The notes beneath the pieces are model-generated. The model ran no database searches, was not told where the DNA came from, and saw nothing but the letters and a program-made list of their open reading frames with translations. The position numbers were made by a program, and so were the translations under genes. A DNA stretch of 64,000 bases from Gammaproteobacteria bacterium (GTDB taxonomy: Bacteria; Pseudomonadota; Gammaproteobacteria; Steroidobacterales; Steroidobacteraceae): contig JAGWPE010000260.1 of the NCBI GenBank assembly GCA_028870635.1, positions 2,612-66,611 on the forward strand, read 5' to 3'. Each line of letters starts with the position of its first letter. The first letter of the stretch is position 1. Below are positions 14,401-56,892 of this stretch, piece by piece.

Positions 14401-14508
14401 ATTGGCCCGAAGTCGCCTGCGGCGCTTCGGGCAGCCAGCCCTGTGACTAATTTGATCTCGCGGCCCAGGGAACGGCCCTGGGCCGCTTACTCACTTGCTT
14501 TCGCACGG
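14401..14508 (+). repeat. Structured intergenic repeat, copy A (two hairpins)
   Basis: Hairpin 1: GCCCGAAG (14405-14412) / CTTCGGGC (14425-14432). Hairpin 2: GCGGCCCAGGG (14460-14470) / CCCTGGGCCGC (14476-14486). Tail: GCTTACTCACTTGCTTTCGCACGG. Related copies lie at 19912-19974, 20246-20457, 25269-25469 (inverted) and 52481-52540. Confidence 0.7.
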
Positions 14509-14542
14509 TAAGGGTCTGTTAAATCCTTTACGGGGATTTGCA

Positions 14543-15544
14543 ATGCCTAGCGCCGAATCGGAACTGCCCAACCCCGACATCGACGACGCCGGGGCGCGCC
14601 TGCACCAAGCTATGCGCACACACCATCCGACGGGCTGGTCGGCGCTGAGGCTGCTGCCGGCGCGCGCCCGGCTCGCACTCGCCGGGGTACTCTTGGCCGC
14701 TCTGGCTTCGGCGGCGATCGCCGAATGGCTGGCGGACGCGCCGCAAACCCAGGCAGCCGTCATCTTCCTGGCGCTTCTGGCGGTGGGACTGCTCCTCGCG
14801 CTCAGCAGGCTGCTGGCCGCGGATGCCGTGAGGCGCGAGGCTCAGCGCGCGGCTTCAGAGCGCCATGCGAAAGATCTGGAAACTCTGATCGAGGCGCGGA
14901 CACGCGAGCTCTCCGCCCTCTCGACCCATCTGCAGGAGCTCTCGGAAAAGGAGAAGTCGGAGCTGGCCCGCAATCTCCACGATGAGCTCGGAGGCCTGCT
15001 GACGGCGGCCAAGATGGATTTGTCCTGGCTGCAGTCGCGCGTGCCCGATCCCGCGCTACAGGAGCGGCTGGCGCAGCTCGGGGGCGTGCTCGATGAGGCC
15101 ATGGATCTCAAGCGCCGTGTGGTGGAGGATCTTCGACCATCGCTGCTCGATCACTTCGGCCTGCCGACGGCACTGCGCGCCTACGTCGATTCGGCATGCG
15201 CGAAGGCGGGACTGCGCGCGGACCTGACGCTGCCCGAGGACGGCGTGCCGATGTCCAAGGAGACGGCGATCGCTCTCTTCAGAATCGTGCAGGAAGGCAT
15301 CACCAACATCATCCGCCATGCCGCCGCGCGGTCGGTGACCCTGCGATTCGTCCTGGAGCGCGAGGCCTGCCGCTTCACACTGAGAGACGACGGCTGCGGC
15401 TTCGATGCGGCCGACCCGAAGTTCCGCTGGTCGCACGGCCTCATGGGAATGCGCCAGCGAGTACGCGCGCTCGGCGGACAGTTCGATCTCGAATCAGCCC
15501 CGGGCGCGGGCACCACGCTCCGGGTGACGATCCCCAGGGATTAG
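14543..15544 (+). CDS. Sensor histidine kinase, HisKA_3 (NarX/DesK-type) with two N-terminal TM segments
   Basis: H-box LARNLHDELGGLLTAAKMDL. HATPase_c motifs (ALFRIVQEGITNIIRHA, RDDGCGF, GLMGMRQRVRALGG). ATG at 14543. Confidence 0.85.
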   Translation: MPSAESELPNPDIDDAGARLHQAMRTHHPTGWSALRLLPARARLALAGVLLAALASAAIAEWLADAPQTQAAVIFLALLAVGLLLALSRLLAADAVRREAQRAASERHAKDLETLIEARTRELSALSTHLQELSEKEKSELARNLHDELGGLLTAAKMDLSWLQSRVPDPALQERLAQLGGVLDEAMDLKRRVVEDLRPSLLDHFGLPTALRAYVDSACAKAGLRADLTLPEDGVPMSKETAIALFRIVQEGITNIIRHAAARSVTLRFVLEREACRFTLRDDGCGFDAADPKFRWSHGLMGMRQRVRALGGQFDLESAPGAGTTLRVTIPRD

Positions 15545-15990
15545 TTGGGGGGACTCCATTTCGAGTGGCCGTCGACGACCACTGCCTTCAGCAGAGAGAT
15601 GTCCCGCATCTTGTCGAGGAAGTAATCCGCCCCGGCCGCGAAGCAGTGATCACGCACGAAATCCGATGCGTAATTGGTCAACACCACGACCAGCGGCTGG
15701 GCGTCCGGCGGATAGAGCTGACGGACCTGGCGGATCACCGCCACACCGTTTCCCTCGGCCAGCTCGATGTCGACCACCAACACATCGTAGGTCGACTCCT
15801 GCAGGCGCAGCAGCGCCTCCGACTGTGTCGCCGCCTGCGCCGTGACCGAGATCAGTCCGGGCTCCGACAGCAGATCCACCAGGCGCCGCGACAGCACGGC
15901 GGAATCCTCGATGAGGAGGATGCGCCGCTCGGCCTTGGAGGAGCCGTTGCCGCCCTCGGATCGCGCTTCAGCGCCCACCATACGCCTCAC
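15541..15990 (-). CDS. Single-domain (CheY-like) response regulator receiver protein
   Basis: RILLIEDSAV...DVLVVDIELAEGNG...VVVLTNY...DYFLDK, receiver motifs only. GTG 15990 overlaps the upstream stop as GTGA; an alternative ATG lies at 15981. Confidence 0.8.
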   Translation of the reverse strand: MRRMVGAEARSEGGNGSSKAERRILLIEDSAVLSRRLVDLLSEPGLISVTAQAATQSEALLRLQESTYDVLVVDIELAEGNGVAVIRQVRQLYPPDAQPLVVVLTNYASDFVRDHCFAAGADYFLDKMRDISLLKAVVVDGHSKWSPPN

Positions 15991-16625
15991 TGCAGCAGGT
16001 TGTTCTTGATGGCGTAATAGGTCATGTCGGCGTTCGTCTTCATTCCCATCTTCTCCAGTATCCGTGTGCGGTAGGTGCTGACGGTCTTGACGCTGAGGAA
16101 GAGGCCGGCGGCGATTTCCGAGACGCTGCGTCCTTCGGCGAGCTTGCAGAAGATCTGGAATTCCCGTTCCGAGAGTACGCTGTGCCGCGGCTCGCCCGGT
16201 GCGCCCTGCAGACCGCTCACCAGCATCTCCGCGAGCTCAGGGCTCACGTAGCGGCCGCCGCGCATCGCGGCACGGATCGCACGGCACAGCTCCCCGTCGT
16301 CGGCGCTCTTGCTCACGAAGCCGCTCGCCCCTGCGCGTAGTACGTTCAGACCGTACTGGCTCTCCGGATAGGCGCTCAACACCAGCGTAGCCACCGATTC
16401 GTGGTGGGACTTGATCTGCCGGAGCACGTCCAGTCCCGACATGTCGGGAAGCGAAAGGTCCAGCAGGAGCACGTCACATGGAGCAGTGCGCAGCAGCGTC
16501 AGAGCCTCGCGTCCTGTCTTCGCCTCACCGGCCCAGACGAAATCGGCTTGTGCCTCGATGATCTGCCTCAGCCCGATACGCACGAGCTGATGATCGTCCA
16601 CGACCGCGACTCGAATGGCCGGCAT
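15987..16625 (-). CDS. NarL/FixJ (LuxR-type HTH) response regulator
   Basis: MPAIRVAVVDDHQLVRIGL...DVLLLDLSLPDMSG... receiver plus LSEREFQIFCKLAEGRSVSEIAAGLFLSVKTVSTYRTRILEKMG LuxR HTH. The track ORF extends upstream to 16802 without support. Confidence 0.9.
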   Translation of the reverse strand: MPAIRVAVVDDHQLVRIGLRQIIEAQADFVWAGEAKTGREALTLLRTAPCDVLLLDLSLPDMSGLDVLRQIKSHHESVATLVLSAYPESQYGLNVLRAGASGFVSKSADDGELCRAIRAAMRGGRYVSPELAEMLVSGLQGAPGEPRHSVLSEREFQIFCKLAEGRSVSEIAAGLFLSVKTVSTYRTRILEKMGMKTNADMTYYAIKNNLLQ

Positions 16626-16722
16626 CAGAGTAGGCGCCGATGGGCGGGCAAGCCTATGGGAGTTGCGGAAGCGGCAACGGGAGCTGCAACGCAACGGACT
16701 GTAGGAATCGTCCGACGGACCC

Positions 16723-18129
16723 TCAACGTAGAGAATCCCGACCGGTTTCGGGCTCCTCCTCCTGGGCCGAGGATGGAGCCCGGCCACCCGAGTCCCTGCC
16801 ATTGTAGCTCTCGAGCCGGTTGTACAGCGTTTTCAGGCTGACGCCGAGGATCTCCGCCGCCTTGCGCTTGACGTGGCCGCAATACGCCAGTGTCGCCATG
16901 GTGACCCGGCGCTCAACCTCCTCCAGCGGGGTCCCGACACGGATGGTGATGGTCGTACCGTCATCCGGCTTGGGCGAGGCATCGGTCAGCGTTATGTCGC
17001 ATTCGATGACGTCGTCGGCCATGATGAAGGCACGCTGCACGTAATTGCGCAGCTCGCGCACATTTCCCGGCCAGCCATACTGGTACAGGCGCACCAGCGC
17101 ATCGCGCGAGAATGTCTTGTGCGTTCCCTCGGCGCGATTGAGCTCGTCCAGGAAGTACTGCGCGAGCTGCTCGATATCGGTCTCGCGGTCGCGCAGGGGC
17201 GGCAGGCGGATCGGGAAGACGTTCAGCCGGTGATAGAGATCCTCGCGCAGCTTGCCGTCGGCGAGGGCCTTCTCCGGCTCGCGGTTGGTCGCGCAGATCA
17301 CCCGCACGTCGCTCGCGATCGGCTGCGTGCCGCCCACGCGGTTGACTGTGCCGGTCTCGAGCACCCGCAGCAGCTTCACCTGCAGCTCCATCGGCATCTC
17401 GGTGATCTCGTCGAGGAAGATCGTGCCGCCGTTGGCGCGCTCGAAGAAACCCTTGTGCTGGCGGTCGGCGCCGGTAAAGCTGCCGCGCTCGTGACCGAAG
17501 AGCTCGCTCTCGATGAGCTGCGGCGCGACGGCACCGCAGTTGAGCGGCAGGAATGAGCTGCTGCGACGCCGGGAGAGCTCGTGGATCGTCTGGGCCGCAA
17601 GCTCCTTGCCGGTGCCGCTCTCTCCGATCAACATGACCGTGGCCGAGGTCGGGGCGACACGGGTGAGCTGATCGTACAGCACCTGCATGCGCTGCGAGCT
17701 GCCGAGGATGCGCCCGAACCGGCCCATGCGGCGCAGCTCGTCGCGCAGCTCGCCGATCTCGTGCTGCAGCGCGGAGGTTTTCTTCGCGTGCCGCAGCACC
17801 GCCTGTACGCGCTCGAGGTCGGCGGGCTTGATCAGATAATCGCTCGCTCCGGCCCGCAGCGCGGCGACGGCGCTGTCTACGGTGGCGTGACCGGTGATGA
17901 CGATGACCTCGGTGGCCTCCGGCTTCTCGAGCTCTCGCAGCAACTCGATTCCTTCTCCGTCCGGGAGCGCCAGATCGGTCAGGAGCACATCGGGACGCTG
18001 CCGGCCGAGCTCTATCCGTGCATCCCGCAGGCTCTGCGCGCGGGCGACGGTGAAGCCCTCCATGCGGGCTACCTCTTGCAGCCAGTCCACCACGTCCGCG
18101 TCGTCGTCGATGATCAAAGCGTGTGCCAT
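16723..18129 (-). CDS. Sigma-54-dependent Fis-family response regulator (NtrC-like: REC + AAA+ + HTH)
   Basis: REC (ALIIDDD...LLTDLALPDG), Walker A GESGTGKE, GAFTGA-equivalent ESELFGHERGSFTGA, and the R-finger region WPGNVRELRN. The C-terminal region ATLAYCGHVKRKAAEILGVSLKTLYNRL is a Fis-type HTH. Confidence 0.92.
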   Translation of the reverse strand: MAHALIIDDDADVVDWLQEVARMEGFTVARAQSLRDARIELGRQRPDVLLTDLALPDGEGIELLRELEKPEATEVIVITGHATVDSAVAALRAGASDYLIKPADLERVQAVLRHAKKTSALQHEIGELRDELRRMGRFGRILGSSQRMQVLYDQLTRVAPTSATVMLIGESGTGKELAAQTIHELSRRRSSSFLPLNCGAVAPQLIESELFGHERGSFTGADRQHKGFFERANGGTIFLDEITEMPMELQVKLLRVLETGTVNRVGGTQPIASDVRVICATNREPEKALADGKLREDLYHRLNVFPIRLPPLRDRETDIEQLAQYFLDELNRAEGTHKTFSRDALVRLYQYGWPGNVRELRNYVQRAFIMADDVIECDITLTDASPKPDDGTTITIRVGTPLEEVERRVTMATLAYCGHVKRKAAEILGVSLKTLYNRLESYNGRDSGGRAPSSAQEEEPETGRDSLR

Positions 18130-18223: not shown

Positions 18224-19465
18224 TCAGAGCGCCGCTCCCGGACTGGGTTTTCTCGCTGTCAGGGCCGACACCGCGCCCGAGATGATCGACACGACGATCA
18301 CCACGAGAACCGCACTGTCGAGTCCCCTCGCGAACGCCGCCGGCAGGTCCTGGCCAGCCACCAGCGCCAGGCAGTAGAGCGCCGCCGGCCCGCGTGCGGC
18401 GAACAGCTCGAACGTGCGCCGCTGCGCAGGCGTGACCACCGGCCGACCGAGCCCGAGGCGCACCGCGAGCGGCCGGACCAGAATCAACAATACGGCAGCG
18501 TAGAGAGCCGTGCGCGGAGTGAAGTCGGCCGTGCCGAGCAGTGTGCCCAACAAAACCATCATGAGGACCGTCGCACCCCGCTCCGCCCGGCCGGCGAACC
18601 TGAGGACGCGCGCACCGAGCGGCTGCTTGCGCGTCATCCGGCGGCGCCCGCCGTGCGACAGCGCCAGCCCCGCGGCGAGGGCGCCGAGAAGCGCATCGGT
18701 GCGCAGCGCGAGGGCGCAGATGTACGCGAGCGCGCCCGTGGCGAAGACGATCATCTCCTCGAGCAGGTCCCCCTGGCGGTCGCGGTCGATCAGCGCCAGC
18801 CAGCGCGCCGCGGCAACGCCCATCAGCCAGCCGACAGCCGCCCCACCGGCGAGAGACCAGAGGATGGTCAGCGTCAGAGAGCCGAGCACGGCCGCGCCCG
18901 CCCCGGTCGCGCCCATCCGCGTCAGTACCAACAGGACCATCGGCCCCACGATCGCGCTGGTCGCGGCTCCTTCCGCTGCAAGAGCAAACGGCACGGGCTC
19001 CTGTTCGCTTTCCACGGCGTGCGCATCCGCTGCCAGCGCCGCATCGGTCGGGGCGAGGATGACGGCCAGGAGCAAAGCCTGCAGCAGGCTCATCCCGAAG
19101 ATCAGATAAGCCGCGCCCGCCGACAGCAGCGCCGCGGATACCGTCGTGAGCGACGCGAGCTGCAGCGGCACCCGCCACGGCGCCCATTCGAACGGCGCCC
19201 GCAGGCGCAGACCCGCGCAAAACAGGCATATCAGGAGGACGGCTTCGCTGATCGATTGGATGAGCGCCCCGTCCTCCGAGAGCTGCGGCTCGATGAGCTT
19301 CAGACCCTGCGGACCTGCGAGCAGGCCGACCCCGATCCCGAGAATCACCGGGCTCGTGGACCATCGCGTCAGGGGAGACTCCGTCCTAGTGTTGACCTGC
19401 TTGTGCACCGGGAGCCGCCACATCGCCGCGGACAGCTCGCTGCAAGCGACAGCCGCGGATCGCAT
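18224..19465 (-). CDS. Cation:proton antiporter (CPA1/Na+/H+ exchanger family); start uncertain
   Basis: Multi-TM protein. SPVILGIGVGLLAGPQGL and AVILAPTDAA are typical of the Na_H_Exchanger family. Candidate starts are ATG 19465, ATG 19423 and GTG 19408, and all overlap the 3' end of the upstream gene. Confidence 0.7.
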   Translation of the reverse strand: MRSAAVACSELSAAMWRLPVHKQVNTRTESPLTRWSTSPVILGIGVGLLAGPQGLKLIEPQLSEDGALIQSISEAVLLICLFCAGLRLRAPFEWAPWRVPLQLASLTTVSAALLSAGAAYLIFGMSLLQALLLAVILAPTDAALAADAHAVESEQEPVPFALAAEGAATSAIVGPMVLLVLTRMGATGAGAAVLGSLTLTILWSLAGGAAVGWLMGVAAARWLALIDRDRQGDLLEEMIVFATGALAYICALALRTDALLGALAAGLALSHGGRRRMTRKQPLGARVLRFAGRAERGATVLMMVLLGTLLGTADFTPRTALYAAVLLILVRPLAVRLGLGRPVVTPAQRRTFELFAARGPAALYCLALVAGQDLPAAFARGLDSAVLVVIVVSIISGAVSALTARKPSPGAAL

Positions 19466-19874
19466 CGTGAGTGCTCATCAGGAACTCGAACTGGCGCAGC
19501 ACGGCGTCGCGTACGAAATCCGGGAGGTGATCGTCCAGAGCGTTGCGATACACCTCCAGGATCCAGCTCTCTCCGCGCTCGCACGCATCGAGAATAGCTC
19601 CGTCCTCGCCGCGCGCAAGAGCGGCGCGCAATCCTGCCCAGCCGCTGCGCCAGAAGCCGGCCGCGGCCCCGTGCGGTTGCCGCCCGCCCCCCAACCGCTC
19701 GACCAACGCCTCGAGCTCGCGCCTCGCGTCCGCGCATTCCTCGGCGCCCCGGACGCAAACATCCTGCAACGGGCCGGGCTCGAGAGATGACGCGCACAGC
19801 CTCAAGGCCTGCTCACTGTCGCGGCGGACTGAAATGAGCTCCCGCAGCGCTTGTATGGTGTACTTATGGCTCAT
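19386..19874 (-). CDS. PA2169/DUF2383 family four-helix-bundle (ferritin-like) protein
   Basis: 162 aa. MSHKYTIQALRELISVRRDSEQALRLCA...ILDACERGESWILEVYRNALD... resembles DUF2383. GAGGAG Shine-Dalgarno sequence upstream. Confidence 0.65.
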   Translation of the reverse strand: MSHKYTIQALRELISVRRDSEQALRLCASSLEPGPLQDVCVRGAEECADARRELEALVERLGGGRQPHGAAAGFWRSGWAGLRAALARGEDGAILDACERGESWILEVYRNALDDHLPDFVRDAVLRQFEFLMSTHDAIRGCRLQRAVRGDVAAPGAQAGQH

Positions 19875-20171
19875 GCGCGCATCTCCTCGACTGGCGCAGA
19901 GTCGGCGTCCTGCCGCTTTGCGCGAGCACGGGGCACTTGATGACTTCGCTCAGGCAGGAAGGGGATTGATGAAGCTTGGAGGCGAGCGCTCAAGCAGGAG
20001 ATGTGCCATGAGATATGCCCGTCGCGGAGGGGCTCGCGGCCCGCACCAGGGCCGCCAGCTCGGCAGGAGACGGCTGCACAATTTTCATCTCCTGTACCTT
20101 TTTACAGACGTTCCGGCCTCCTCCGCGGCCTGAGCGGCCCCCGCGAGCCTGCCGGGCGGTCGAAACGATGT

Positions 20172-20187
20172 TGGCATGATGGTTGCA
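20172..20187 (+). promoter_or_regulatory. Candidate sigma-54 (-24/-12) promoter
   Basis: TGGCAT-GATGG-TTGCA has the exact GG-N10-GC spacing. It differs from the TGGCAC-N5-TTGCA consensus at one position, and the flanking T and G/A also fit the extended consensus. It lies in a long non-coding region with no upstream plus-strand gene. Confidence 0.55.
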
Positions 20188-20197
20188 TGGAGTGGCT

Positions 20198-20245
20198 AGA
20201 CCCCCCGTTTGGCGGGCTGTGGTGCGACCAGCCCGCTCTTTTTTT
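20198..20245 (+). ncRNA. Candidate short sigma-54-dependent sRNA (predicted TSS ~20198 to terminator)
   Basis: The predicted TSS lies ~12 nt after the -12 GC element. The transcript would have a C-rich single-stranded 5' part (CUAGACCCCCCGUUU) followed by the terminator hairpin. No ORF is present. This is purely predictive. Confidence 0.3.
20211..20245 (+). terminator. Rho-independent terminator
   Basis: Stem GCGGGCTG (20212-20219) / CAGCCCGC (20229-20236), 9-nt loop, then TCTTTTTTT (20237-20245). Confidence 0.6.
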
Positions 20246-20457
20246 CTGCGTCCCTGCGGCGCGAAGTGCGGCATCGTGCCGCTTCGCGCGAGCACGGGGC
20301 TGTGACGGGGATTCATCTCGCGGCCCCCGGGAACGGCCCGGGGGCCGCTTCATCAATCGCTTTCGAACGGCGCCGAGGGAAGTGCGCCGGGGGAGCGCTT
20401 CATCAATCGCCTTTGCAAGGCGCGCTGGAGGGGCGCGGCGGCGGCTTGCTTTCGCTT
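20246..20457 (+). repeat. Structured intergenic repeat, composite copy C (one full unit plus two partial units)
   Basis: Hairpin 1: GCGCGAAG (20259-20266) / CTTCGCGC (20282-20289). Hairpin 2: GCGGCCCCCGGG (20320-20331) / CCCGGGGGCCGC (20337-20348). GCTTCATCAATCGC occurs twice (20347-20360 and 20395-20408), and the unit ends ...GGCTTGCTTTCGCTTGG. Confidence 0.65.
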
Positions 20458-20506
20458 GGCGCTGGGTTCAGATTCCGGGCTCATCACTGCTCGCGGAGGG
20501 GCGCCA

Positions 20507-20806
20507 ATGCATCAGATGATGAATTCGGAGCAGGCTGTCGCCATACACCAGGCGCTCATCTGCGTGCAGAGCGCCGTCACAGGGATGACGTTTCCGCGGT
20601 GTGATCAGGAGGATCTCCTCGAGCTCATCGACAGGGTGGAAGAGCAGCTGCATTGCTCTCATCCCAACGCCGCCCTGATGTGCACCTTCCTCAACTCCAT
20701 CGCGCGCAGCCTGCGCGCGCAGCCGGAAGCGCGCGAGGCATGTCTCACGATCGAGCAGGCGATCGAGGCCGCGGGCATGCCGAGCACCTGGCAATCGGGT
20801 ATCTGA
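20507..20806 (+). CDS. Small hypothetical protein (99 aa, five Cys)
   Basis: ATG 20507 lies 7 nt after a GGAGG Shine-Dalgarno sequence. MHQMMNSEQAVAIHQALICVQSAVTGMTFPRCDQEDLLELIDRVEEQLHCSHPNAALMCTFLNSIARSL... matches no family I recognise. Confidence 0.5.
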   Translation: MHQMMNSEQAVAIHQALICVQSAVTGMTFPRCDQEDLLELIDRVEEQLHCSHPNAALMCTFLNSIARSLRAQPEAREACLTIEQAIEAAGMPSTWQSGI

Positions 20807-20821: not shown

Positions 20822-22459
20822 TCAGCGGCGCGAGACAGCCAGGCGCCGCACCAGGGGCACGAAGGTGTCGAAGTCGACCGGCTTCGGCACGTGCAGATCG
20901 AAGCCCGCATCCATCGCGGCCGCGACGTCACTGCGCGACGCGTAGCCGGTCACGGCGATCGCGAGCATCCGCCTGCCGACTTGGGTCGATCGCAGCTTGC
21001 GCACCAGCGAGTAGCCGTCCTCCACCGGCATGCCGATATCGGTGACCACGATGTCGAAATGCGCGCCCTGCGCATCCAGCTGCCGCAGCGCCGAGGGCGC
21101 GGAGTCGGTTACCGTAACCGAGGCACCCTCGAGCCGCAGCATCTGCGCGACCAACGTGCGCGCTTCCAGCTCATCGTCCACGACGAGGATGGACAGTCCT
21201 TCGAGTGTCTGTCGCTGCTGCGGCAGCTCCCGCTTCATGCCATCCGCCGGCGCGGCCGCTTCCGCCGAGGCCAACGACCGGGCCATGGCCCTGGGCAGGC
21301 GGACGCTGAACATTGCGCCGGCGCCGCGTCCGCCGCTATGCGCCGCAACGGACCCGCCATGCAGGGCGACGATCTCGCGGACCAGCGTCAGACCGAGCCC
21401 GAGCCCGGAGGTCTGGCGGGTGCTCGTGTCGTGGCCTTGTCTGAAGCGATCGAATATGTGCGGCAACAGCTCCGGCGCAATGCCCTGACCGGTATCCTCC
21501 ACCGTGAGCTCCGTGAACGCGCCGTTCTCGCGCACCCCCACGGTGATCCGGCCCCCGGAGCCGGTGAACTTCACCGCGTTGGAGAGCAGATTGCCGATCA
21601 CCTGATGCAGGCGGTCGGGGTCCCCGCGCAGCTCACCCGCGCCCGGGACGAAGGCTGTCGCGATCTCGATGCCCTTCGCGGCCGCCGCCGGTCGTGCGGC
21701 GTCGATCGCCAGTCGCGCGATCCGCGCGAGCTGGATCGGCCGCGTCTCCACCTTGAGTTTGCCGGTGTTCACGCGCCCGAGATCCAGCAGATCGTTGACC
21801 ATTTTGAGCTGCGCTTTCGCGCTCTGCTCGATGCGCGGAGTGATCGCCGCGACCTCGGGGTCATTGCCGCACTTCAAGGCGAGAATGCGGTTCCAGCCGA
21901 GCATGGCATTGAGCGGTGAGCGCAGCTCGTGCGAGATCACCGACAGGAATTCGTCCTTGGAGCGGTAGGCGGCTTCCGCTGCTTCGCGCTCGCTCGTCAC
22001 GTTGCGCGAGGTGATGACCAGATGCGCGGATTCGGGGTCAGCGCCGGGCCTGAGGATGCAGCCGCGCAACGCGAGCCAGCGGGTTCCTCCCGGCCGCTCC
22101 GGCGCCGGCCGCACCCGGACCGTGAGATCCAAGGGCGATGCGCCCGAAAGCGCCTCCCGCACCGCGGCCGAGAACCGTTCGCGGTCGTCGGCGTGGATGC
22201 GCGACTCCACCGCGTCCCAGGCGAGCATCTCATCCGGAGGCCAGCCCCATTCGGCCTTGAATTGCGAGTTGGCCTCCAACGCGCCGGCGCCGGCGTGCAG
22301 CCGGCAATAGCCGATCTGACCCGCGGCGAGCACCGTCTCCAGCTCATCCTTGCGGCGCGCGAGGCGCTCCCACTCGGCTGGCAGCGGGCGCGCTGCCGGG
22401 GCGGGCGCGCACGCCGCATCTGGGCGGGAACCGGGGTCGTCGTCGTGAATTGATGTCAT
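20822..22459 (-). CDS. Hybrid sensor histidine kinase / response regulator with PAS domain (cytoplasmic)
   Basis: Start at ATG 22459 (MTSIHDDDP). PAS-like region, H-box FLSVISHELRSPLNAML, HATPase_c (GNLLSNAVKFT, DTGQGI, GLGLGLTLVREIV) and a C-terminal receiver (ILVVDDELE...VVTDIGMPVEDG...VPKP). The track ORF extension to 23701 is antisense to rpoN. Confidence 0.9.
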   Translation of the reverse strand: MTSIHDDDPGSRPDAACAPAPAARPLPAEWERLARRKDELETVLAAGQIGYCRLHAGAGALEANSQFKAEWGWPPDEMLAWDAVESRIHADDRERFSAAVREALSGASPLDLTVRVRPAPERPGGTRWLALRGCILRPGADPESAHLVITSRNVTSEREAAEAAYRSKDEFLSVISHELRSPLNAMLGWNRILALKCGNDPEVAAITPRIEQSAKAQLKMVNDLLDLGRVNTGKLKVETRPIQLARIARLAIDAARPAAAAKGIEIATAFVPGAGELRGDPDRLHQVIGNLLSNAVKFTGSGGRITVGVRENGAFTELTVEDTGQGIAPELLPHIFDRFRQGHDTSTRQTSGLGLGLTLVREIVALHGGSVAAHSGGRGAGAMFSVRLPRAMARSLASAEAAAPADGMKRELPQQRQTLEGLSILVVDDELEARTLVAQMLRLEGASVTVTDSAPSALRQLDAQGAHFDIVVTDIGMPVEDGYSLVRKLRSTQVGRRMLAIAVTGYASRSDVAAAMDAGFDLHVPKPVDFDTFVPLVRRLAVSRR

Positions 22460-22591: not shown

Positions 22592-23968
22592 ATGTCGAAT
22601 GCCGTATTGGGACTGCGCCTGAAGCAGCAGCTCACGCTGACACCTCGGCTGCAGCAGTCGGTGAAGCTGCTCCAACTTTCCGCTCTGGAATGCGTGCAAG
22701 AACTGCACCAGGCGATCGCGCAGAATCCCTTCCTCGAAGAGAGCGCGGAATCCCCGGAATCCGCGGAGTCCTCCGACTCGCGCTCTGAGAGCGAGGGGGC
22801 TGCCGAGGACAGCTCCCGGGCCGACCTCGACTTCTCCTCCGGCGGCGGTGGCGGAAGCGGTGAAGAGACACCCGACTGGACTGAATGGACCGCCTCGCCC
22901 TCGACCCTGCACGATGCGCTGCGTGACCAGCTGCTCCTTCTCGGTTTGACGGAGCGCGATCACGTGCTCGCGAATCTCATCATCGACGCGCTGGACGATG
23001 ACGGCTTCCTGCGCCTGCCGCTCGAGGATGTCGCCGCGCTGGTTCCGGGAGCGGCGCCGGGAGAGATCGAGACGGCGCTTCGCATCGTGCAAACCCTGGA
23101 GCCGAGCGGCATCGCCGCGCGCAGCCTCGGAGAGTGCCTGGCGCTGCAACTCGAGGCGATGGACCGCGATACGCCCGGCCGCGACTTCGCGCTGGAAGTG
23201 GTGCAGAACAGGCTGTCGATGATGGCCGCGAGAGACAACACGCGGCTTCTCGAGGCGCTCGGCTGTTCGCAAGAGGAGCTCCGCCTCGCGATGGAGCTGA
23301 TCCGCAGCCTCGATCCGCGCCCGGGGTCCAAAGTCGGCACGTTCGAGCCCCGCGCCATCGTTCCCGACGTGATCGTGCGCAAGGAAAAGAAGCGCTGGGT
23401 CGTGACGGTCAACTCGGCGATCTACCCGCGGATTCGCGTCAACCAACAGTACGCGGACTACTTCCGCCAGGCGCGGGACGGCGAGACTGCCCTCCTCGCG
23501 CAACACCTGCAGGAGGCGCGTTGGCTGGTGCGCAACCTCGAGCAGCGGTTCCTGACCATCCAACGGGTAGCCGAGGCGGTGGTCACCCGCCAGCGGAATT
23601 TCTTCGAGTACGGAGACCTTGCGATGCGGCCGCTGACGCTGCGCGAGATCGCCGATGAGCTCGGGCTGCACGAGTCGACGGTGTCGCGGGCCACGAGCCA
23701 CAAGTTCATGGCGACGCCGCGCGGCGTGGTCGCTTTCAAGCGCTTCTTCTCCCGTCAGCTCGCAACGACGAGCGGCGGCTCGTGCTCCGCCACCGCCATC
23801 CGCGCGCTGCTGCGGGAATTCATTGCCGCCGAGGACCGGCGCAACCCGCTCTCCGACGTGCAGCTCACCGAGCTCCTCGCCGACCGGGGCGTCAAGGTCG
23901 CGCGGCGCACCGTGACTAAGTATCGCCGCTCGATGCAGCTGCCAGCGGTGGATTTCCGCCGGGCATAG
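22592..23968 (+). CDS. rpoN: RNA polymerase sigma-54 factor
   Basis: 458 aa. Region I MSNAVLGLRLKQQLTLTPRLQQSVKLLQLSALE, an acidic region II, an HTH, and the RpoN box ARRTVTKYR near the C-terminus. Confidence 0.92.
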   Translation: MSNAVLGLRLKQQLTLTPRLQQSVKLLQLSALECVQELHQAIAQNPFLEESAESPESAESSDSRSESEGAAEDSSRADLDFSSGGGGGSGEETPDWTEWTASPSTLHDALRDQLLLLGLTERDHVLANLIIDALDDDGFLRLPLEDVAALVPGAAPGEIETALRIVQTLEPSGIAARSLGECLALQLEAMDRDTPGRDFALEVVQNRLSMMAARDNTRLLEALGCSQEELRLAMELIRSLDPRPGSKVGTFEPRAIVPDVIVRKEKKRWVVTVNSAIYPRIRVNQQYADYFRQARDGETALLAQHLQEARWLVRNLEQRFLTIQRVAEAVVTRQRNFFEYGDLAMRPLTLREIADELGLHESTVSRATSHKFMATPRGVVAFKRFFSRQLATTSGGSCSATAIRALLREFIAAEDRRNPLSDVQLTELLADRGVKVARRTVTKYRRSMQLPAVDFRRA

Positions 23969-24431
23969 CGATCCTGTTCTCGATGTCCTGCACTCCGGGA
24001 CAGGCGTCGACGAGATCCTCGATCGCGTGCTTCATTCCCCGCTCCGGCACCGTTCCCTGCAGAACCACCTTCGCTGCCGAGACCTCGACCGCCACATCGC
24101 TCGAGTCGATATACGGTGCTTGCCTCAGGCGCTCCGCGATGTCCTCGCGCAGCCGCTCGTCGGATCGCTGATAGCACTTCGGGCCCGGCGGATAGCGGGG
24201 CACGTCCCGCTCCGGCCGGTCGGGCCCGCGGCTCCCGGCGCCAAACCGGTAGTAGCCACCGGTGAATCCCGGTCCGCCGCGGCGCGGCGGATCCGGGCGC
24301 CAGTCCGGACGCCACGGATCCTTCTCGTACTGCCCCTCGAAGCGCTCCTCGCCGTCCGCCGGAGAGTAATGCTGTTGCCGCTCCCGGCCCATGCCCTTAC
24401 CTCTGTCTTGCTCGGATCTCATTTTCGTCAC
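23916..24431 (-). CDS. BON domain-containing stress protein
   Basis: Disordered basic/Pro-rich N-half, then RSDERLREDIAERLRQAPYIDSSDVAVEVSAAKVVLQGTVPERGMKHAIEDLVDACPGVQDIENRI, which is a BON domain. GTG 24431 or ATG 24422. Confidence 0.75.
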   Translation of the reverse strand: MTKMRSEQDRGKGMGRERQQHYSPADGEERFEGQYEKDPWRPDWRPDPPRRGGPGFTGGYYRFGAGSRGPDRPERDVPRYPPGPKCYQRSDERLREDIAERLRQAPYIDSSDVAVEVSAAKVVLQGTVPERGMKHAIEDLVDACPGVQDIENRIAMPGGNPPLAAASSGDT

Positions 24432-24653
24432 CGCCTGATTGCAGCCTGACGCGAAAGCGCCGCCTCGGAGAACTGGCCTGCGGCAACACAGGGGTCCGGC
24501 CGCGGTAGGAATCGTCCGACACGAGCTTGGGAAGCCGCCCCCGTCCGTTCCGCCCCCCGGCCGACTTCAGCGGCGCCCGGCAGCAAGTAACTTGCCCGCA
24601 TGTGCAATGAAACACGAATCGACGCCCCATTGCGGGGCCGGGAAGGGGCGCAA

Positions 24654-25244
24654 ATGGTGACTGACGACATGGTGGCACTGGTGCCGCAGCTTCACACCTT
24701 CGCCCGCTCGCTCTGCCGTGACGGCGTGCGCGCGGACGACCTGGTACAGGAGGCGCTGATGCGCGCCATCAACAACATCCAGCGCTTCAAGCCGGGGACC
24801 AACCTCAAGGCGTGGCTGTTCACCATCGTGCGCAACGAGCATTACTCGCAGCTCCGGCGCAGCAAATTCGAGGCGCAGGGCATGGACATCGAGCTGCTTC
24901 CGGAGCCCAGCGTCCCGCCGGACCACGACGGCAAGCTCGAGCTCCGCGACCTCAACCGCGCGCTTGCCTCGCTGTCGCCCGGCCAGCGCACGGCGCTCAT
25001 CCTGGTGAGCGTGAGCGGCTTCTCGTATGAGGAGGCGGCGGAAATCTGCGGGTGCGCGGTAGGGACGATCAAGAGCCGCGTCGCCCGCGCCCGAGAGACT
25101 CTTCTCGAGATGCTGGAGGGCCGCCAGCCGATGCCGGCGCTGCAGCAGGGACACGAGGACGACCTCGAGGATCCGCTGCTGGGGCAGCTGGGGCACATGG
25201 TCCCCGCCCATCGCCGGCCGCTCCCCGCCCACATCTCCCTGTAG
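24654..25244 (+). CDS. ECF-type sigma-70 family factor (no adjacent anti-sigma gene)
   Basis: MVTDDMVALVPQLHTFARSLCRDGVRADDLVQEALMRAI...WLFTIVRNEHYSQLRR (sigma-2) and LSPGQRTALILVSVSGFSYEEAAEICGCAVGTIKSRVARAR (sigma-4), followed by a ~40-aa acidic/His tail. Confidence 0.85.
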   Translation: MVTDDMVALVPQLHTFARSLCRDGVRADDLVQEALMRAINNIQRFKPGTNLKAWLFTIVRNEHYSQLRRSKFEAQGMDIELLPEPSVPPDHDGKLELRDLNRALASLSPGQRTALILVSVSGFSYEEAAEICGCAVGTIKSRVARARETLLEMLEGRQPMPALQQGHEDDLEDPLLGQLGHMVPAHRRPLPAHISL

Positions 25245-25268: not shown

Positions 25269-25469
25269 GCCCGAAAGCAAGTTGGTAAGCCGCTCAGGGC
25301 CGTTCCCTGGGCCGTTCCCCGGGGCCATTCCCTGGGCCGCGGGGTCGAAAGCAGTAATTGGGCTGGCCGCTCGACAAAATCGCCCGGAGCGATTTTGGAC
25401 GGCGGAGCCGGCCCGAAGGGCTAGGCGCAGGACGCGCCTGGCAACCGCCGCAGGCGACTTCGGGCCAAT
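25269..25469 (-). repeat. Structured intergenic repeat, expanded copy B (inverted orientation)
   Basis: The reverse complement reads ATTGGCCCGAAGTCGCCTGCGGCG...CTTCGGGC..., then AAAATCGCTCCGGGCGATTTT..., then GCGGCCCAGGGAATGGCCCCGGGGAACGGCCCAGGGAACGGCCCTGAGCGGCTTACCAACTTGCTTTCGGGC. The order of modules matches copy A, with insertions and four instead of two GGCCCNGGG units. Confidence 0.7.
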
Positions 25470-25482
25470 TAAACTACAGCCC

Positions 25483-27456
25483 ATGCAGCCGCTCAGCCAG
25501 GTTCTGATCCTCCTCGCCGCCGCGGTGCTGCTCGTCACCGTCGCGCGACGGCTCGGGTTGCCGACCACGATCCCGTATCTGCTGGTGGGCCTGGCGCTGG
25601 GGCCGCATGCGTTGGCGGTGGTGGCCAGCACTGCCGCAACGCGAGCGCTCGCCGAGCTCGGGGTCGTCTTCCTCCTCTTCACGCTGGGGCTCGAATTCGC
25701 CTTGCCGCGCCTGATCGCCATGCGGCGCGAGGTGTTCGGGCTGGGCTTCGCCCAGGTGACGGCGACCGCGGCGGTGTTCGCGCTGCTGGCGCGGCTCGGC
25801 GGCATTCCCTGGCCGGCGGCTGTCGTGGTGGGCGGCGCGCTCGCCATGAGCTCGACCGCCATCCTCCTGCACCAGCTCACCGAGCGTGCCGAGCTCAACC
25901 GCACCCACGGCCGGCTCGCCTTCAGCATCCTCCTCTTTCAGGACCTCGCCTTCGTCCCCTTCCTCGCGCTGGCCTCGGCGCTCGCCGCCAGAACCGGCCG
26001 CTTCGACCTGCGGGCCAGCCTGGAGGCGGTGGCCGGCGGCGTGCTCGCGGTGGCGGCGGTGCTGGCCGCCGGCCGCTGGCTGCTGCGGCCGCTCTTTCGG
26101 GAGATGGCTCACAGCCGGCTGCGGGAGCTGTTCACGCTCGCGGTGCTGCTCGTGGTGCTGGCTTCCGCCTGGGTATCGAGTCTCGCAGGGCTTTCGCCGG
26201 GGCTGGGCGCCTTCCTCGCCGGAATGATGCTCGCCGAGACCGAGTACCGGCATCAGATCGAGACGGTGATCCGGCCGTTCCGCGACATCCTTCTCGGGCT
26301 CTTCTTCGTCTCGGTCGGAATGCTGCTCGATGTGCATCTTCTCATCGGCGAGCTGGGAGCGGTCTTCTACTGGCTCGCCGCCATCGTCGTGCTCAAGGCC
26401 GCCGTGGCGGCGCTGGTCGCCCGTCCCTTCACCGGCTCGCGCTTCAAGGCGCTGCGCACCGGGATCGTGATCGCGATCGGCGGTGAGTTCGGCGTGGCGC
26501 TCGGCACGATCGCGCTCGCGACAGGCCTCATTCCGGCGGACTTCGGCCAACCGCTCCTCGTGGCGATCGTGCTCTCCATGCTCTTGAGCCCGCTGGTACT
26601 CAACAACAACAAGCGCATCGCGCGCTTATTGCTGCGGGAATCGGGACCGCCGCGTACCGCGTTCGAGCGCGAGAGCGCCGCGACGAGGGAGATCGGAAGG
26701 CGTGACCACGTCATTCTCTGTGGTTTCGGGCGCGTCGGCCAGAACGTGGCCCGGGTGCTCGAGTCGCAGGGTTTCGAATACATCGCCCTCGATCTGGACC
26801 CGGCGCGCATCGCAGCGGCCCGCCAGGCGGGCGATCCCGTCATGTTCGGCGACTCGGCCGACGAGCAGATCCTGGTGAAGGCGGGCCTCGAGACGGCGAC
26901 GGCGGTGGTGATCAGCTTCTCCGACCCGGCGACCTCCGTCGGAATTCTGCGCAGCATCCGCCGTATGCGGCCCGATGTACCCGTACTGGTGCGCACGCAG
27001 GATGATACCCGGATCAAGGAGCTGCAGGAGGCAGGCGCAACCGACGTCGTGCCGGAGACCTTCGAAGCCAGTCTGATGCTCGTCTCGCACGTGTTGATCC
27101 TGTTGCACGTTCCGGTGTCGCGCGTCGTGCGCACGATGGGCGACATCCGCAGCCACCGCTACTCGGTCCTGAGAAACATCATCCGGCGAGGCGATGCGCG
27201 GCCGCTCGACGAGAGCCACGAGTACCGCGAAGAGATCAAGTCCGTGGTGGTGCCTCCCGGAGCCTGGGCAGTGGGCCGGACGCTGCGCGATGTGCGCGGC
27301 CGCGGTGTCGGCGTGACCTTCACCGGCATCCGCCGCCAAGGCATATTGGGTCGCGAGCCGGCCGGCGACACGGTACTGCGCGACGGCGATGTGGTGGTGC
27401 TCTACGGGCAGCCGGAAGAGCTCGAGCGCGCCGAGTCCGTCTTGCTGGCCGGGTAA
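25483..27456 (+). CDS. Monovalent cation:proton antiporter-2 (CPA2) family, Kef/YbaL-like with RCK (TrkA-N and TrkA-C) domains
   Basis: MQPLSQVLILLAAAVLLVTVARRLGLPTTIPYLLVGLALGP... membrane domain. The Rossmann motif ILCGFGRVGQNVA marks TrkA-N, and the C-terminal segment ...DGDVVVLYGQPEEL marks TrkA-C. Confidence 0.88.
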   Translation: MQPLSQVLILLAAAVLLVTVARRLGLPTTIPYLLVGLALGPHALAVVASTAATRALAELGVVFLLFTLGLEFALPRLIAMRREVFGLGFAQVTATAAVFALLARLGGIPWPAAVVVGGALAMSSTAILLHQLTERAELNRTHGRLAFSILLFQDLAFVPFLALASALAARTGRFDLRASLEAVAGGVLAVAAVLAAGRWLLRPLFREMAHSRLRELFTLAVLLVVLASAWVSSLAGLSPGLGAFLAGMMLAETEYRHQIETVIRPFRDILLGLFFVSVGMLLDVHLLIGELGAVFYWLAAIVVLKAAVAALVARPFTGSRFKALRTGIVIAIGGEFGVALGTIALATGLIPADFGQPLLVAIVLSMLLSPLVLNNNKRIARLLLRESGPPRTAFERESAATREIGRRDHVILCGFGRVGQNVARVLESQGFEYIALDLDPARIAAARQAGDPVMFGDSADEQILVKAGLETATAVVISFSDPATSVGILRSIRRMRPDVPVLVRTQDDTRIKELQEAGATDVVPETFEASLMLVSHVLILLHVPVSRVVRTMGDIRSHRYSVLRNIIRRGDARPLDESHEYREEIKSVVVPPGAWAVGRTLRDVRGRGVGVTFTGIRRQGILGREPAGDTVLRDGDVVVLYGQPEELERAESVLLAG

Positions 27457-56321: not shown

Positions 56322-56892
56322 GAGTTGCCGTGGGCATCAGCACCTCGGCGCTCAGGTGGGTTCCCAGCGTGATCTGGTGCGGGATGCAGGTGGAGCCGTA
56401 CTTGACGTTTCGGGTGGTGAAGAGCGGCAGGAAGGTCTCCTTGAATTGCTCGATCAGCTCGCACTTGCCCTGCTCGTTGTAGGACGCGTTCTCCGGCATC
56501 AGTACCACTTCCTTCCACAGCGCCCGTACGGGAGGACCCGGGTTCTTGACCTTTGACGCCTCCGCGGAGGACGCGGGGACGAGCACGCGCATGTCCACCG
56601 TTACGCCCGGGAAGGGTGAGGGCACGCCGGGCCCGCTGCTGCAAGGCACCTCCCGTACCTTGAGATCCTTGGCGCCGAGCTTGCTCAGCATCGCCCTCAC
56701 CTCGTCCTGCAGTCCGTCGCAGGAATAATGTGTCGTGAAGCCCTGGTATATGAACTGCAGATGCTTGGGCACCCACACGGCCGAAACGCCGTCCTGAGCC
56801 ATGGCCGAGGCGGGCAGGGCGGCCAGGAGAGTCGCCGCCGCCACCACGGAAGCCAATCGCGGGACCCATCGGGTAAGGCACATGGCGCTCAT
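56311..56892 (-). CDS. Secreted hypothetical protein (193 aa)
   Basis: ATG 56892 gives MSAMCLTRWVPRLASVVAAATLLAALPASAMA. No family recognised. The track ORF (to 57348) runs antisense into opgD. Confidence 0.5.
   Translation of the reverse strand: MSAMCLTRWVPRLASVVAAATLLAALPASAMAQDGVSAVWVPKHLQFIYQGFTTHYSCDGLQDEVRAMLSKLGAKDLKVREVPCSSGPGVPSPFPGVTVDMRVLVPASSAEASKVKNPGPPVRALWKEVVLMPENASYNEQGKCELIEQFKETFLPLFTTRNVKYGSTCIPHQITLGTHLSAEVLMPTATPKP

Follow-up and report, generated by a model that had tools for sequence, protein, structure and literature searches.

The window analyzed here, a 64-kb stretch of DNA from a member of the Steroidobacteraceae, contains a compact regulatory region in which two sigma-54 promoters face away from each other and are flanked by genes for a sigma-54 activator and for sigma-54 itself. 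The features of this locus, with gene assignments based on Pfam and, where indicated, NCBIfam, are as follows.

16723-18129, minus strand: gene for an NtrC-family sigma-54 enhancer-binding response regulator, the presumed activator (Pfam domains REC, AAA+ and HTH_8)
18224-19874, minus strand: operon read leftward from the divergent sigma-54 promoter (Pfam, NCBIfam)
19386-19874, minus strand: first part of this operon, a PA2169-family four-helix-bundle protein (DUF2383)
18224-19465, minus strand: second part of this operon, a cation/proton antiporter
19993-20008, minus strand: divergent sigma-54 promoter (TGGCACATCTCCTGCT), facing the DUF2383/antiporter operon and possibly the activator gene
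20073-20108, no strand: AT-rich conserved block between the two promoters (GCTGCACAATTTTCATCTCCTGTACCTTTTTACAGA), with the inverted repeat CTGTA-N6-TACAG
20172-20187, plus strand: sigma-54 (-24/-12) promoter of the predicted small RNA (TGGCATGATGGTTGCA, that is, TGGCAT-GATGG-TTGCA)
20198-20245, plus strand: predicted primary transcript of about 48 nt (AGACCCCCCGUUUGGCGGGCUGUGGUGCGACCAGCCCGCUCUUUUUUU), with +1 placed at A20198, give or take 2 nt
20198-20211, plus strand: single-stranded C-rich 5' segment, the candidate seed (AGACCCCCCGUUUG), with a short U-rich stretch just 5' of the hairpin
20211-20245, plus strand: intrinsic terminator, a GC-rich hairpin of 8-10 bp (20211-20237) followed by T7
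20507 (start), plus strand: ORF of 99 aa, the next plus-strand ORF, 261 nt downstream
20822-22459, minus strand: hybrid PAS histidine kinase/receiver, a candidate sensor (Pfam, NCBIfam)
22592-23968, plus strand: rpoN, encoding sigma-54 (Pfam, NCBIfam)

The plus-strand promoter shows the GG-N10-GC spacing and agrees with the pattern TGGCAC-N5-TTGCW at 10 of the 11 specified positions, so that the near-consensus site with a single mismatch that had been reported in an earlier note on this DNA is indeed present. There is also, as the note had stated, no plus-strand gene upstream, the neighbor being the minus-strand DUF2383 gene; the description of the promoter as an orphan is nevertheless wrong because it belongs to a divergent pair with the site at 19993-20008. 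The terminator stem begins 24 nt past the promoter and is formed by the arms GCGGGCTG (20212-20219) and CAGCCCGC (20229-20236), with TCTTTTTTT following and ending at position 20245, which matches the GC-rich stem of 8 bp and the T-run described previously. ViennaRNA lengthens this stem by one G-U pair and assigns -18.7 kcal/mol to the 48-nt RNA. In both the minimum-free-energy and the centroid folds the first 13 nt (AGACCCCCCGUUU) are unpaired, in agreement with the C-rich, single-stranded 5' segment proposed in the earlier note. The C-run is a single, 5'-terminal and unpaired stretch of six cytosines, and the terminator hairpin loop (UGUGGUGCGAC) is not C-rich. The z-score of the hairpin is only about -2, and a simple terminator scan of the window did not pick it up because the loop is larger than the 8-nt limit of the scan. 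On direct reading, GUUUGG together with the hairpin and U7 are sequence features of the Hfq type, from which binding to Hfq is only predicted.

Judged inside the 64-kb window alone, the combination of promoter and hairpin is statistically not compelling: four sites with at most one mismatch were observed against 1.35 expected, and 4 of 100 shuffled sequences attained the same number. As far as sequence comparison can tell, it is the conservation among relatives, all of them metagenome-assembled genomes (MAGs) or metagenome contigs, that lifts the pair above chance. The comparison with related genomes that had been proposed as a check showed that promoter and terminator are kept together across about 145 Steroidobacteraceae loci. 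Among these loci the 48-nt segment that runs from A20198 to the T-run hardly varies: 129 of the approximately 145 loci share the same first 40 nt, of which just 9 variants occur. An ungapped comparison of 29 loci yielded 97% identity for the core as opposed to 31-35% for the flanks, and the median DNA identity of the neighboring genes is 82% for the activator, 78% for rpoN and 79% for the 99-aa ORF. The 19-nt start of the core (GACCCCCCGTTTGGCGGGC) has no mismatch in any of 31 carrier species loci (31/31), which were located via the neighboring ORF with up to 3 mismatches allowed. The T-run is kept at all loci, with varying first bases and composition and with T-richness retained.

Of 148 loci, 144 have a promoter site with at least 10 of the 11 positions no more than 200 nt upstream of the core, and a contig end truncates three of the other four; the expectation by chance is roughly 0.002 per locus. 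Across the loci the promoter takes the form TGGCAY-N5-TTGCA, in which the -24 and -12 elements are kept and the 5-nt spacer drifts freely. Two arrangements can be distinguished by the distance from promoter to core, namely a short form (11-13 nt), to which the window belongs, and a long form (61-115 nt). In the short form, the conserved stretch opens precisely with (A)GACC, 11-13 nt past TTGCA, and extends into the T-run, where it stops; this onset is the position expected of a sigma-54 start and thus supports the predicted +1.

The terminator stem is intact (8/8 pairs) in all 10 sequence variants. One compensatory change, U-A to C-G, occurs in locus L010; seven of the eight pairs never vary, and covariation support for the stem is minimal. 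The long-form loci contain an additional hairpin upstream of ACCGAAGACCCCCC that does covary, with C-G in 15, U-A in 8 and G-C in 2 cases at pair 18-52, U-A in 16 and C-G in 9 at pair 19-51, and G-C in 16 and A-U in 7 at pair 20-50. On the evidence of these alignments, covariation in the long-form hairpin and the compensatory change in L010 are the signature of selection at the RNA level. In other lineages, the same 48-nt module would form the 3' end of a predicted transcript of 100-150 nt, a placement suggesting that activity resides in the module. In the lineage of the window, the RNA appears to be transcribed directly in its minimal form, the promoter having moved to a distance of 11 nt.

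A covariance model of the element (R1) detected one copy in the window, with 80.4 bits, and no extra or diverged copies either in the remainder of the window or in 52 loci that carry the ORF without the element. Three further matches to the 19-mer in metagenomes (L105, L148 and L193) lack the hairpin and were dismissed as chance matches. In a scan of the whole window against Rfam 15 no family attained its gathering score, and even at E <= 10 no family covered 20198-20245 on the plus strand within the region 19700-20700, including Qrr; the only overlapping match, to a DnaX-frameshift model, is on the opposite strand and, at 13.7 bits and E = 3.8, attributable to chance. No tRNA or tmRNA was found at the element. 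In the search with the activator protein, the best 120 database relatives are all at least 84% identical (84-98%), with farther orthologs outside its reach, so that the outer limit of the RNA family lies beyond that search.

The gene neighborhood is conserved as well. Among loci found independently of gene content, the divergent activator gene is located upstream in 20 of the 21 whose flank spans 4 kb or more, and all 23 whose flank spans 4.2 kb or more have rpoN downstream, in the orientation of the small RNA. Of 43 loci, 35 have the hybrid kinase downstream and on the other strand, and a DUF2383 gene, an antiporter gene or both precede the element in 51 of 66. Pfam bears out the identification, made in the earlier note, of the enhancer-binding response regulator and rpoN on the two sides of the element; the activator scores under every NCBIfam equivalog cut-off. 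The hybrid PAS kinase is a candidate sensor that we infer to be linked to the activator. Genes for BON and KefC-like proteins are also present near the locus, whereas hpf and ptsN, which commonly adjoin rpoN, are missing beside it here. AlphaFold models the product of the 99-aa ORF with confidence as a four-helix bundle (pLDDT 86.8). A structure search with this model gave no PDB match at E <= 0.2 and no Hpt domain among the top 50 hits, and Pfam had no match for the ORF; the idea that it encodes the missing Hpt phosphotransfer protein between hybrid kinase and activator is accordingly unsupported by structure search or Pfam.

Most short-form loci contain an opposite-strand site of the form (T/A/G)GGCAC-N6-TGCT at 128-186 nt from the small RNA promoter, and in many long-form loci the same divergent site is found back to back with it, 13-58 nt off. 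Across 17 short-form loci the AT-rich block (-99 to -64) shows almost no variation, the remaining DNA between the promoters being unalignable, and is a candidate binding region for the activator or for IHF. A 7-mer search of the control regions for an activator-binding motif common to short and long forms recovered only the promoter itself, and the neighboring regulator is therefore assigned on synteny alone. Dependence of the small RNA promoter on RpoN and on an activator is predicted. A 32-nt repeat (19903-19934 and 20269-20300) was considered as a crosswise enhancer and discarded: the downstream copy is restricted to about 19 loci of the clade of the window and the upstream copy to three near-identical loci.

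Searches for targets of the seed covered the neighboring genes and the 64-kb window, in all about 1 Mb of DNA, most of which is syntenic. For the start regions of the activator, antiporter, DUF2383, 99-aa ORF, kinase and rpoN genes (up to 81 loci), duplex energies were no better than those of shuffled seeds, and complementary sites in the neighbors recur in position in at most 15 of 82 loci. A site in the 5' region of rpoN in the window (-22.3 kcal/mol) was rejected as a target because it is kept in only 13 of 78 loci. The scan of start regions across the window for seed complementarity gave nothing convincing; its best match, at 41243 (-24.7 kcal/mol), falls within a longer ORF without a Pfam assignment and was likewise set aside.

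Taken together, comparative genomics strongly supports the proposal of the earlier note that the locus encodes a very short sigma-54-dependent small RNA with promoter and terminator about 50 nt apart: conservation runs from the predicted +1 to the T-run, the promoter is kept, and synteny is maintained. Most probably, the element encodes a regulatory RNA not described before and does not act as a leader of the next gene. We consider it probable that this RNA is free-standing, depends on sigma-54 and an activator, and acts in trans through a 5' C-rich seed, its targets, expression and activator site being predictions. Under this model, sigma-54 RNA polymerase would occupy TGGCAT-N5-TTGCA (20172-20187), and the promoter would be opened by the neighboring NtrC-family regulator once it carries a phosphate, perhaps transferred from the adjacent hybrid PAS kinase. 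The divergent promoter at 19993-20008, which drives the DUF2383-antiporter operon, is probably fired by the same activator; the co-regulated antiporter operon, along with the nearby BON and KefC-like genes, suggests ionic, osmotic or pH stress as the signal. Transcription from about A20198 to the intrinsic terminator at about 20245 would produce an RNA of about 48 nt that consists of the seed AGACCCCCCG, a U stretch, a GC hairpin and a U-tail. The C-run would then pair with mRNAs from other loci at G-rich sequences that resemble a Shine-Dalgarno motif, and the U stretch, hairpin and U-tail would serve as the handle for a chaperone of the Hfq type, such that pairing alters translation or stability.

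The earlier note had left room for a terminator-controlled leader of the 99-aa ORF, in which the sigma-54 promoter serves the downstream gene (this ORF, or rpoN where it is adjacent) and the hairpin with its T-run is a regulated terminator. The ORF at 20507 is indeed, as that note had it, the next one on the plus strand, and it begins 261 nt from the element; in some loci (L088, L097, L168, L184 and L201) rpoN, also on the same strand, lies 256-344 nt from the core start; and in a 322-nt fold of the window the C-run pairs with a downstream CGGGGAU, enclosing the terminator. However, the ORF is directly downstream of the RNA in just 38 of 76 independently found loci, the next gene elsewhere being rpoN or, in many loci, the opposite-strand kinase. 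Moreover, the ORF owns a conserved promoter-like motif in all 84 loci, including the 52 without the RNA, where it is located about 8 nt before the ATG, and this motif is retained in the window at 20446-20474. The spacer between terminator and ORF ranges from about 70 to 340 nt and is variable in sequence, the pairing partner is missing even in the close relative L002, and no conserved anti-terminator structure was found. The limited synteny and the ORF's own motif lead us to reject attenuation as extremely improbable; the variable downstream gene and this same motif indicate that the RNA is a transcription unit independent of the flanking gene.

Once the leader is set aside, the extreme conservation of the core can be read in other ways. 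The transcript might bind or titrate a protein, such as an RNA chaperone, a C-tract-binding protein or a component of the adjoining sigma-54/activator machinery, without pairing to mRNAs. The 40-nt core is frozen including the stem and six loop bases (GUGCGA), whereas base-pairing small RNAs normally allow covariation in the terminator stem, and such a frozen hairpin exceeds what a seed plus a terminator needs, which hints at an additional or different constraint; the obligate linkage to rpoN and the activator gene and the lack of a complementary target among the neighbors point the same way. Nonetheless, the conserved single-stranded 5' stretch, the U stretch and the U-tailed terminator constitute the canonical layout of a base-pairing small RNA, GGA-type CsrA motifs are absent, and the failure to find targets in the roughly 1 Mb searched, which is largely syntenic, tells little about the remaining genome. 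C-runs are, furthermore, documented as anti-Shine-Dalgarno seeds (PMC3771888). We therefore regard a purely protein-binding role as unlikely. A more specific, and decidedly unlikely, variant is that the RNA is a dedicated partner of the surrounding sigma-54 machinery that binds or tunes the sigma-54 holoenzyme, the activator or their synthesis; if true, it would carry the idea of 6S RNA over to sigma-54, or be a feedback RNA, and would account for the frozen hairpin and loop and the constant adjacency of rpoN and the activator gene. Finally, the invariant 40 bp could act as DNA, that is, as a protein-binding site, insulator or recombination site whose RNA-like features are incidental or secondary. 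Extreme invariance is typical of protein-binding DNA, and the region between the divergent sigma-54 units is densely regulatory, but the element has the strand asymmetry of an RNA gene, with a promoter at a fixed distance, a hairpin and a T-run on one strand. The T-run drifts in composition and keeps its T-richness, the adjoining hairpin of the long forms covaries as RNA does, the stem change in L010 is compensatory, and no tRNA or tmRNA matches the site; a DNA-level function is hardly credible in view of these features.

The preferred reading, a free-standing small RNA, is in line with several known systems. Small RNAs dependent on sigma-54 and its activators include GlmY (GlrR), CrcZ (CbrB), NrsZ and NfiS (NtrC) and Pxr (next to nla19); their genes have a -24/-12 promoter and often adjoin that of their own two-component activator, and the RNAs are 100-400 nt long, CrcZ and GlmY being protein sponges with repeated motifs. 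The RNA in the window resembles them in its -24/-12 promoter but has no sequence in common with them. The processed RNAs ArcZ, RprA and CpxQ, and RybB with its 5' seed, have an active module of about 50 nt in which the seed is followed by a terminator/Hfq handle. The long-form lineages similarly carry the module at the 3' end, as processed small RNAs do, with processing putative in their case; the minimal form in the window, in contrast, appears to be a primary transcript and not a processing product. C-rich motifs are also a feature of RsaE, RepG/HPnc5490 and 6C.

In Vibrio, the gene for the small RNA Qrr1 adjoins that of its activator, luxO, and Qrr RNAs are about 100 nt long with four hairpins. 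Transcription of Qrr1 depends on sigma-54 and an activator, an NtrC-family regulator fed by hybrid kinases (PMC10162802). The likeness to the element described here extends to the sigma-54 promoter, the NtrC-family activator, an ultra-conserved single-stranded pairing region and the intrinsic terminator. The differences are equally clear: the Rfam Qrr model (RF00378) has no match here, no LuxO site (TTGCAWWWTGCAA) with up to 3 mismatches is present in 19875-20171, the LuxO model, whose cut-off is 800, scores the activator in the window at 338.6 bits, and the RNA is about 48 nt long with one hairpin, a C-run seed, invariable linkage to rpoN and pairing with a divergent sigma-54 operon. For sX13 of Xanthomonas, a related high-GC gammaproteobacterial lineage, excerpts of PMC3771888 describe C-rich motifs that repress mRNAs carrying G-rich motifs at the ribosome-binding site, with three stem-loops, 4C/5C motifs in the loops and independence from Hfq. 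Unpaired C-runs are thus common to sX13 and, by prediction, to the RNA in the window, which differs in having one hairpin and only one C-run, of six nucleotides, at the 5' terminus; there is no detectable homology to sX13, the likeness is functional only, and sigma-54/activator control is not mentioned for sX13 in these excerpts (PMC3771888).

The literature searched contained no description of a small RNA from Steroidobacteraceae. This RNA would extend the short list of sigma-54-dependent small RNAs by a new family and, together with the two-component activator and the sigma-54 gene, would make up a testable regulatory module. To our knowledge, almost nothing is known about regulation in these bacteria. 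The element would also represent a natural minimal small RNA composed of a seed and a terminator, which, depending on the lineage, is itself the primary transcript or makes up the 3'-terminal part of an RNA that is longer and structured, and the two forms could be useful for studying how small RNAs are built and trimmed in evolution. The Steroidobacteraceae are widespread in soil metagenomes, a scan of which with the 19-mer retrieved at least 120 contigs, and the core is invariant, so that one probe or one set of primers would suffice to detect the RNA family-wide in metatranscriptomes.

A sigma-54 promoter and, 24 nt downstream of it, an 8-bp stem had been proposed in the earlier note, and both are present in the sequence. 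That note also described the promoter as an orphan with no plus-strand gene upstream. The upstream neighbor is indeed a minus-strand gene, DUF2383 (reading frame end 19874); the label "orphan" does not hold, since a second sigma-54-type site on the minus strand makes the promoter one half of a divergent pair. The elements of this region are:

19993-20008, minus strand: second sigma-54-type site TGGCACATCTCCTGCT, facing the DUF2383 gene/antiporter operon
20073-20108: AT-rich block of 36 bp with CTGTA-N6-TACAG, midway between the two promoters
20172-20187, plus strand: sigma-54 site TGGCATGATGGTTGCA, deviating from TGGCAC-N5-TTGCW at one position, with GG-N10-GC spacing
20212-20219 / 20229-20236: hairpin stem GCGGGCTG / CAGCCCGC, then TCTTTTTTT

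Folded alone, the 48 nt of 20198-20245 yield -18.7 kcal/mol, and the first 13 nt (AGACCCCCCGUUU), which had been singled out as a C-rich unpaired segment, are unpaired in this fold. The window is expected to contain 1.35 sigma-54 sites with at most one mismatch, and the z-score of the hairpin is about -2; judged from the window by itself, the pair of motifs carries little weight.

The case for a small RNA (sRNA) comes from three sets of related loci, namely three near-identical contigs retrieved via the exact protein sequence of the downstream 99-aa ORF, 80 species-level loci retrieved from a genome collection with the ORF alignment, and at least 120 metagenome contigs retrieved with the 19-mer GACCCCCCGTTTGGCGGGC and hence independently of gene content. 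With three mismatches permitted, GACCCCCCGTTTGGCGGGC was found in the window and in 31 of 80 species-level loci, every time without a mismatch and followed by the same hairpin and T-run. The 40-nt sequence AGACCCCCCGTTTGGCGGGCTGTGGTGCGACCAGCCCGCT is identical in 129 of about 145 loci among the matches listed, with nine variants only. The positions that vary within the core are the base preceding GACC, columns 23, 24 and 31 of the alignment, all three in the hairpin loop, and the beginning of the T-run; a single locus (L010) also shows a compensatory replacement of a U-A stem pair by C-G. When 29 species loci are compared without gaps, identity reaches 97% in the core, where a 1-nt loop deletion in one locus causes much of the shortfall from 100%, and drops to 35% in the 30 nt upstream and 31% in the 25 nt downstream; the median DNA identity to the window is 82% for the activator gene, 78% for rpoN and 79% for the ORF. 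A sigma-54 site matching at least 10/11 positions is located within 200 nt 5' of the core in 144 of 148 loci among the matches listed (in three of the remaining four, a contig end intervenes), and its 5-nt spacer varies essentially freely. Because 7 of the 8 pairs of the terminator stem are invariant, covariation says little about it, and the case for a terminator is carried by stability and the U-run.

Two architectures are apparent. In the short form, to which the window belongs, the distance from the end of TTGCA to GACC is 11-13 nt, which places the onset of conservation at the expected sigma-54 start, with A20198 as the predicted +1. In the long form, the promoter is separated from the downstream core by 61-115 nt, and the predicted RNA, 100-150 nt long, has the same 48-nt module, after ACCGAA, at its 3' end. 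A hairpin immediately 5' of ACCGAAGACC in the long forms covaries at pairs 18-52 (CG 15, UA 8, GC 2), 19-51 (UA 16, CG 9) and 20-50 (GC 16, AU 7), which, judging from the alignment, is an RNA-level signature. The short-form loci differ clearly in gene content and in the identity of their antiporters to that of the window (~80% versus ~55%), suggesting that the minimal version may have evolved repeatedly. Of the 83 distinct long-form loci among the matches listed, 38 have another sigma-54-like site (GGGCAC-N5/6-TTGCG) ~25 nt beyond the first promoter; this site could be either a tandem promoter or the initial hairpin of the longer RNA. In examples such as loci L033, L036 and L204, it lies 8-25 nt after the first TTGCA.

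The earlier note left a choice between a very short sigma-54-dependent RNA and a terminator-controlled leader of the 99-aa ORF. Neighbors were counted in the 19-mer-retrieved loci with enough flanking DNA, among the matches listed, a sample unbiased for gene content. The activator gene is located upstream on the opposite strand in 20 of 21 loci, rpoN downstream on the same strand in 23 of 23, the hybrid kinase downstream on the opposite strand in 35 of 43, and DUF2383 and/or the antiporter upstream in 51 of 66; the ORF is directly downstream in only 38 of 76, and where it is missing, either the opposite-strand kinase or rpoN comes next. Conversely, 52 species with the ORF in other contexts show no trace of the element. 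The ORF also has a promoter-like motif of its own, (C)TTGCGG/TTGCTT - ~17 nt - CA(A/G)ATT, in 84 of 84 ORF loci (20446-20474 in the window), the interval between terminator and ORF ranges from ~70 to 340 nt and contains lineage-specific repeats, and the related locus L002 lacks the C-run/CGGGGAU pairing around the terminator that the long fold of the window shows. On these grounds, the interpretation as a leader or attenuator is rejected. The conserved core, the promoter and the linkage to the activator gene and rpoN favor the short sRNA, and the element is best regarded as a predicted gene in its own right, consistently accompanied by the activator gene and rpoN.

The ORF itself (20507-20806, plus strand) is a real, highly conserved gene, with 397 homologues at 73-93% identity (the few with source names come from Steroidobacteraceae or Gammaproteobacteria) and invariant C32, C59, C79, H14, H49 and H52. 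It matches no Pfam or NCBIfam family, and its AlphaFold model, a confident four-helix bundle, has no significant match in the PDB. In most loci, the promoter-like motif ends ~8 nt before the ATG, which suggests that the mRNA is leaderless in most species; the clade of the window has gained 4 extra codons and a Shine-Dalgarno leader.

The regulatory genes identified in the earlier note were confirmed, and the neighborhood includes:

16723-18129, minus strand: enhancer-binding response regulator, the activator (Pfam and NCBIfam)
20822-22459, minus strand: hybrid PAS kinase (Pfam and NCBIfam)
22592-23968, plus strand: rpoN (Pfam and NCBIfam)
23916-24431, minus strand: BON-domain gene, after rpoN
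24600-25244: ECF sigma factor, after rpoN
25282-27456: KefC-like K+ efflux protein, after rpoN

With its receiver-AAA+-HTH organization, the activator is a generic member of the NtrC family, and it scores below every NCBIfam equivalog cut-off. No other protein of the locus is as well conserved (84-98% identity among the best 120 database relatives of the activator). The divergent (T/A/G)GGCAC-N6-TGCT site is conserved: most short-form loci have it at a distance of 128-186 nt from the sRNA promoter, and in many long-form loci the two lie back to back, 13-58 nt apart, so that both the sRNA and the DUF2383-antiporter operon look sigma-54-dependent; they probably share an activator. The AT-rich block is nearly invariant in the short-form clade, where all surrounding DNA is unalignable, and is a candidate activator or IHF site. 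No control-region motif common to short- and long-form loci was found, nor was a LuxO-type site detected in the control region of the sRNA. In most Proteobacteria, rpoN is followed by hpf and ptsN; the rpoN of the window lacks these neighbors and may be a second, dedicated copy. Its downstream genes, together with the antiporter operon, hint, speculatively, at ionic or osmotic stress.

From its 5' end, the sRNA comprises a conserved segment predicted to be unpaired, a short run of U, a GC hairpin and a U-tail, the classical organization of base-pairing sRNAs that carry a chaperone handle. By analogy with sX13, the C-run seed would be expected to pair with G-rich, Shine-Dalgarno-like sequences. 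Repression by sX13 of Xanthomonas requires its C-rich motifs as well as G-rich motifs located at translation starts (PMC3771888). A search for targets of the present sRNA detected no excess complementarity among the neighboring genes and nothing convincing across the 64-kb window. The main alternative is a non-antisense function, for which it speaks that the hairpin and loop are frozen beyond the needs of a plain terminator. This suggests an additional constraint, which could reflect a specific protein partner or, within the base-pairing reading, an extended pairing surface.

No Rfam family matches the sRNA, and no described sRNA from Steroidobacteraceae was found in the literature searched. 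In Qrr/LuxO, GlmY/GlrR, CrcZ/CbrB and Pxr, a sigma-54 sRNA likewise adjoins the gene of its activator, and sX13-type C-rich regulators resemble the sRNA in seed chemistry; it belongs to none of these systems, given that covariance-model, binding-site and orthology tests all fail. Control of an sRNA by sigma-54 and an activator is documented for Qrr1 (PMC10162802). The present sRNA is unusual in its minimal size, its fixed place between the activator gene and rpoN, and its near-absolute conservation, compared with only ~70-90% DNA identity for the best-conserved neighboring genes of the family. Its expression, RpoN dependence and function are predicted from comparative sequence analysis.

Several additional features of the window were observed. 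A HisKA_3 kinase (14495-15544, plus strand) and a LuxR/GerE-type response regulator (15987-16802, minus strand) flank the activator gene; genes of the same two families are found beside it in L204, so that they may belong to the same signaling island. A sigma-54-like match, TGGCACACGCTTTGAT (18113-18128, minus strand), lies across the first codons of the activator gene, start codon included (ATGGCACACGCT...), and is most likely a coding coincidence, and a further one-mismatch site, TGGCGCCGAGCTTGCT, is located at 56670-56685 (plus strand). The segment 20336-20423 is a 50-nt tandem duplication containing GCTTCATCAATCGC twice (20347 and 20397), and the DUF2383 gene has a third copy, inverted, in its 5' region (19962-19975); the single copy downstream of the sRNA in L002 indicates that the duplication is recent. 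A 32-nt direct repeat, CGGCRTCSTGCCGCTTYGCGCGAGCACGGGGC, occurs at 19903-19934 and 20269-20300. The upstream copy is confined to the window and the related loci L001 and L002, and the downstream copy sits in a long palindromic hairpin ~20-30 nt past the sRNA terminator that is kept in ~19 loci of the clade and may serve as an additional terminator or as a palindrome bound by a protein.
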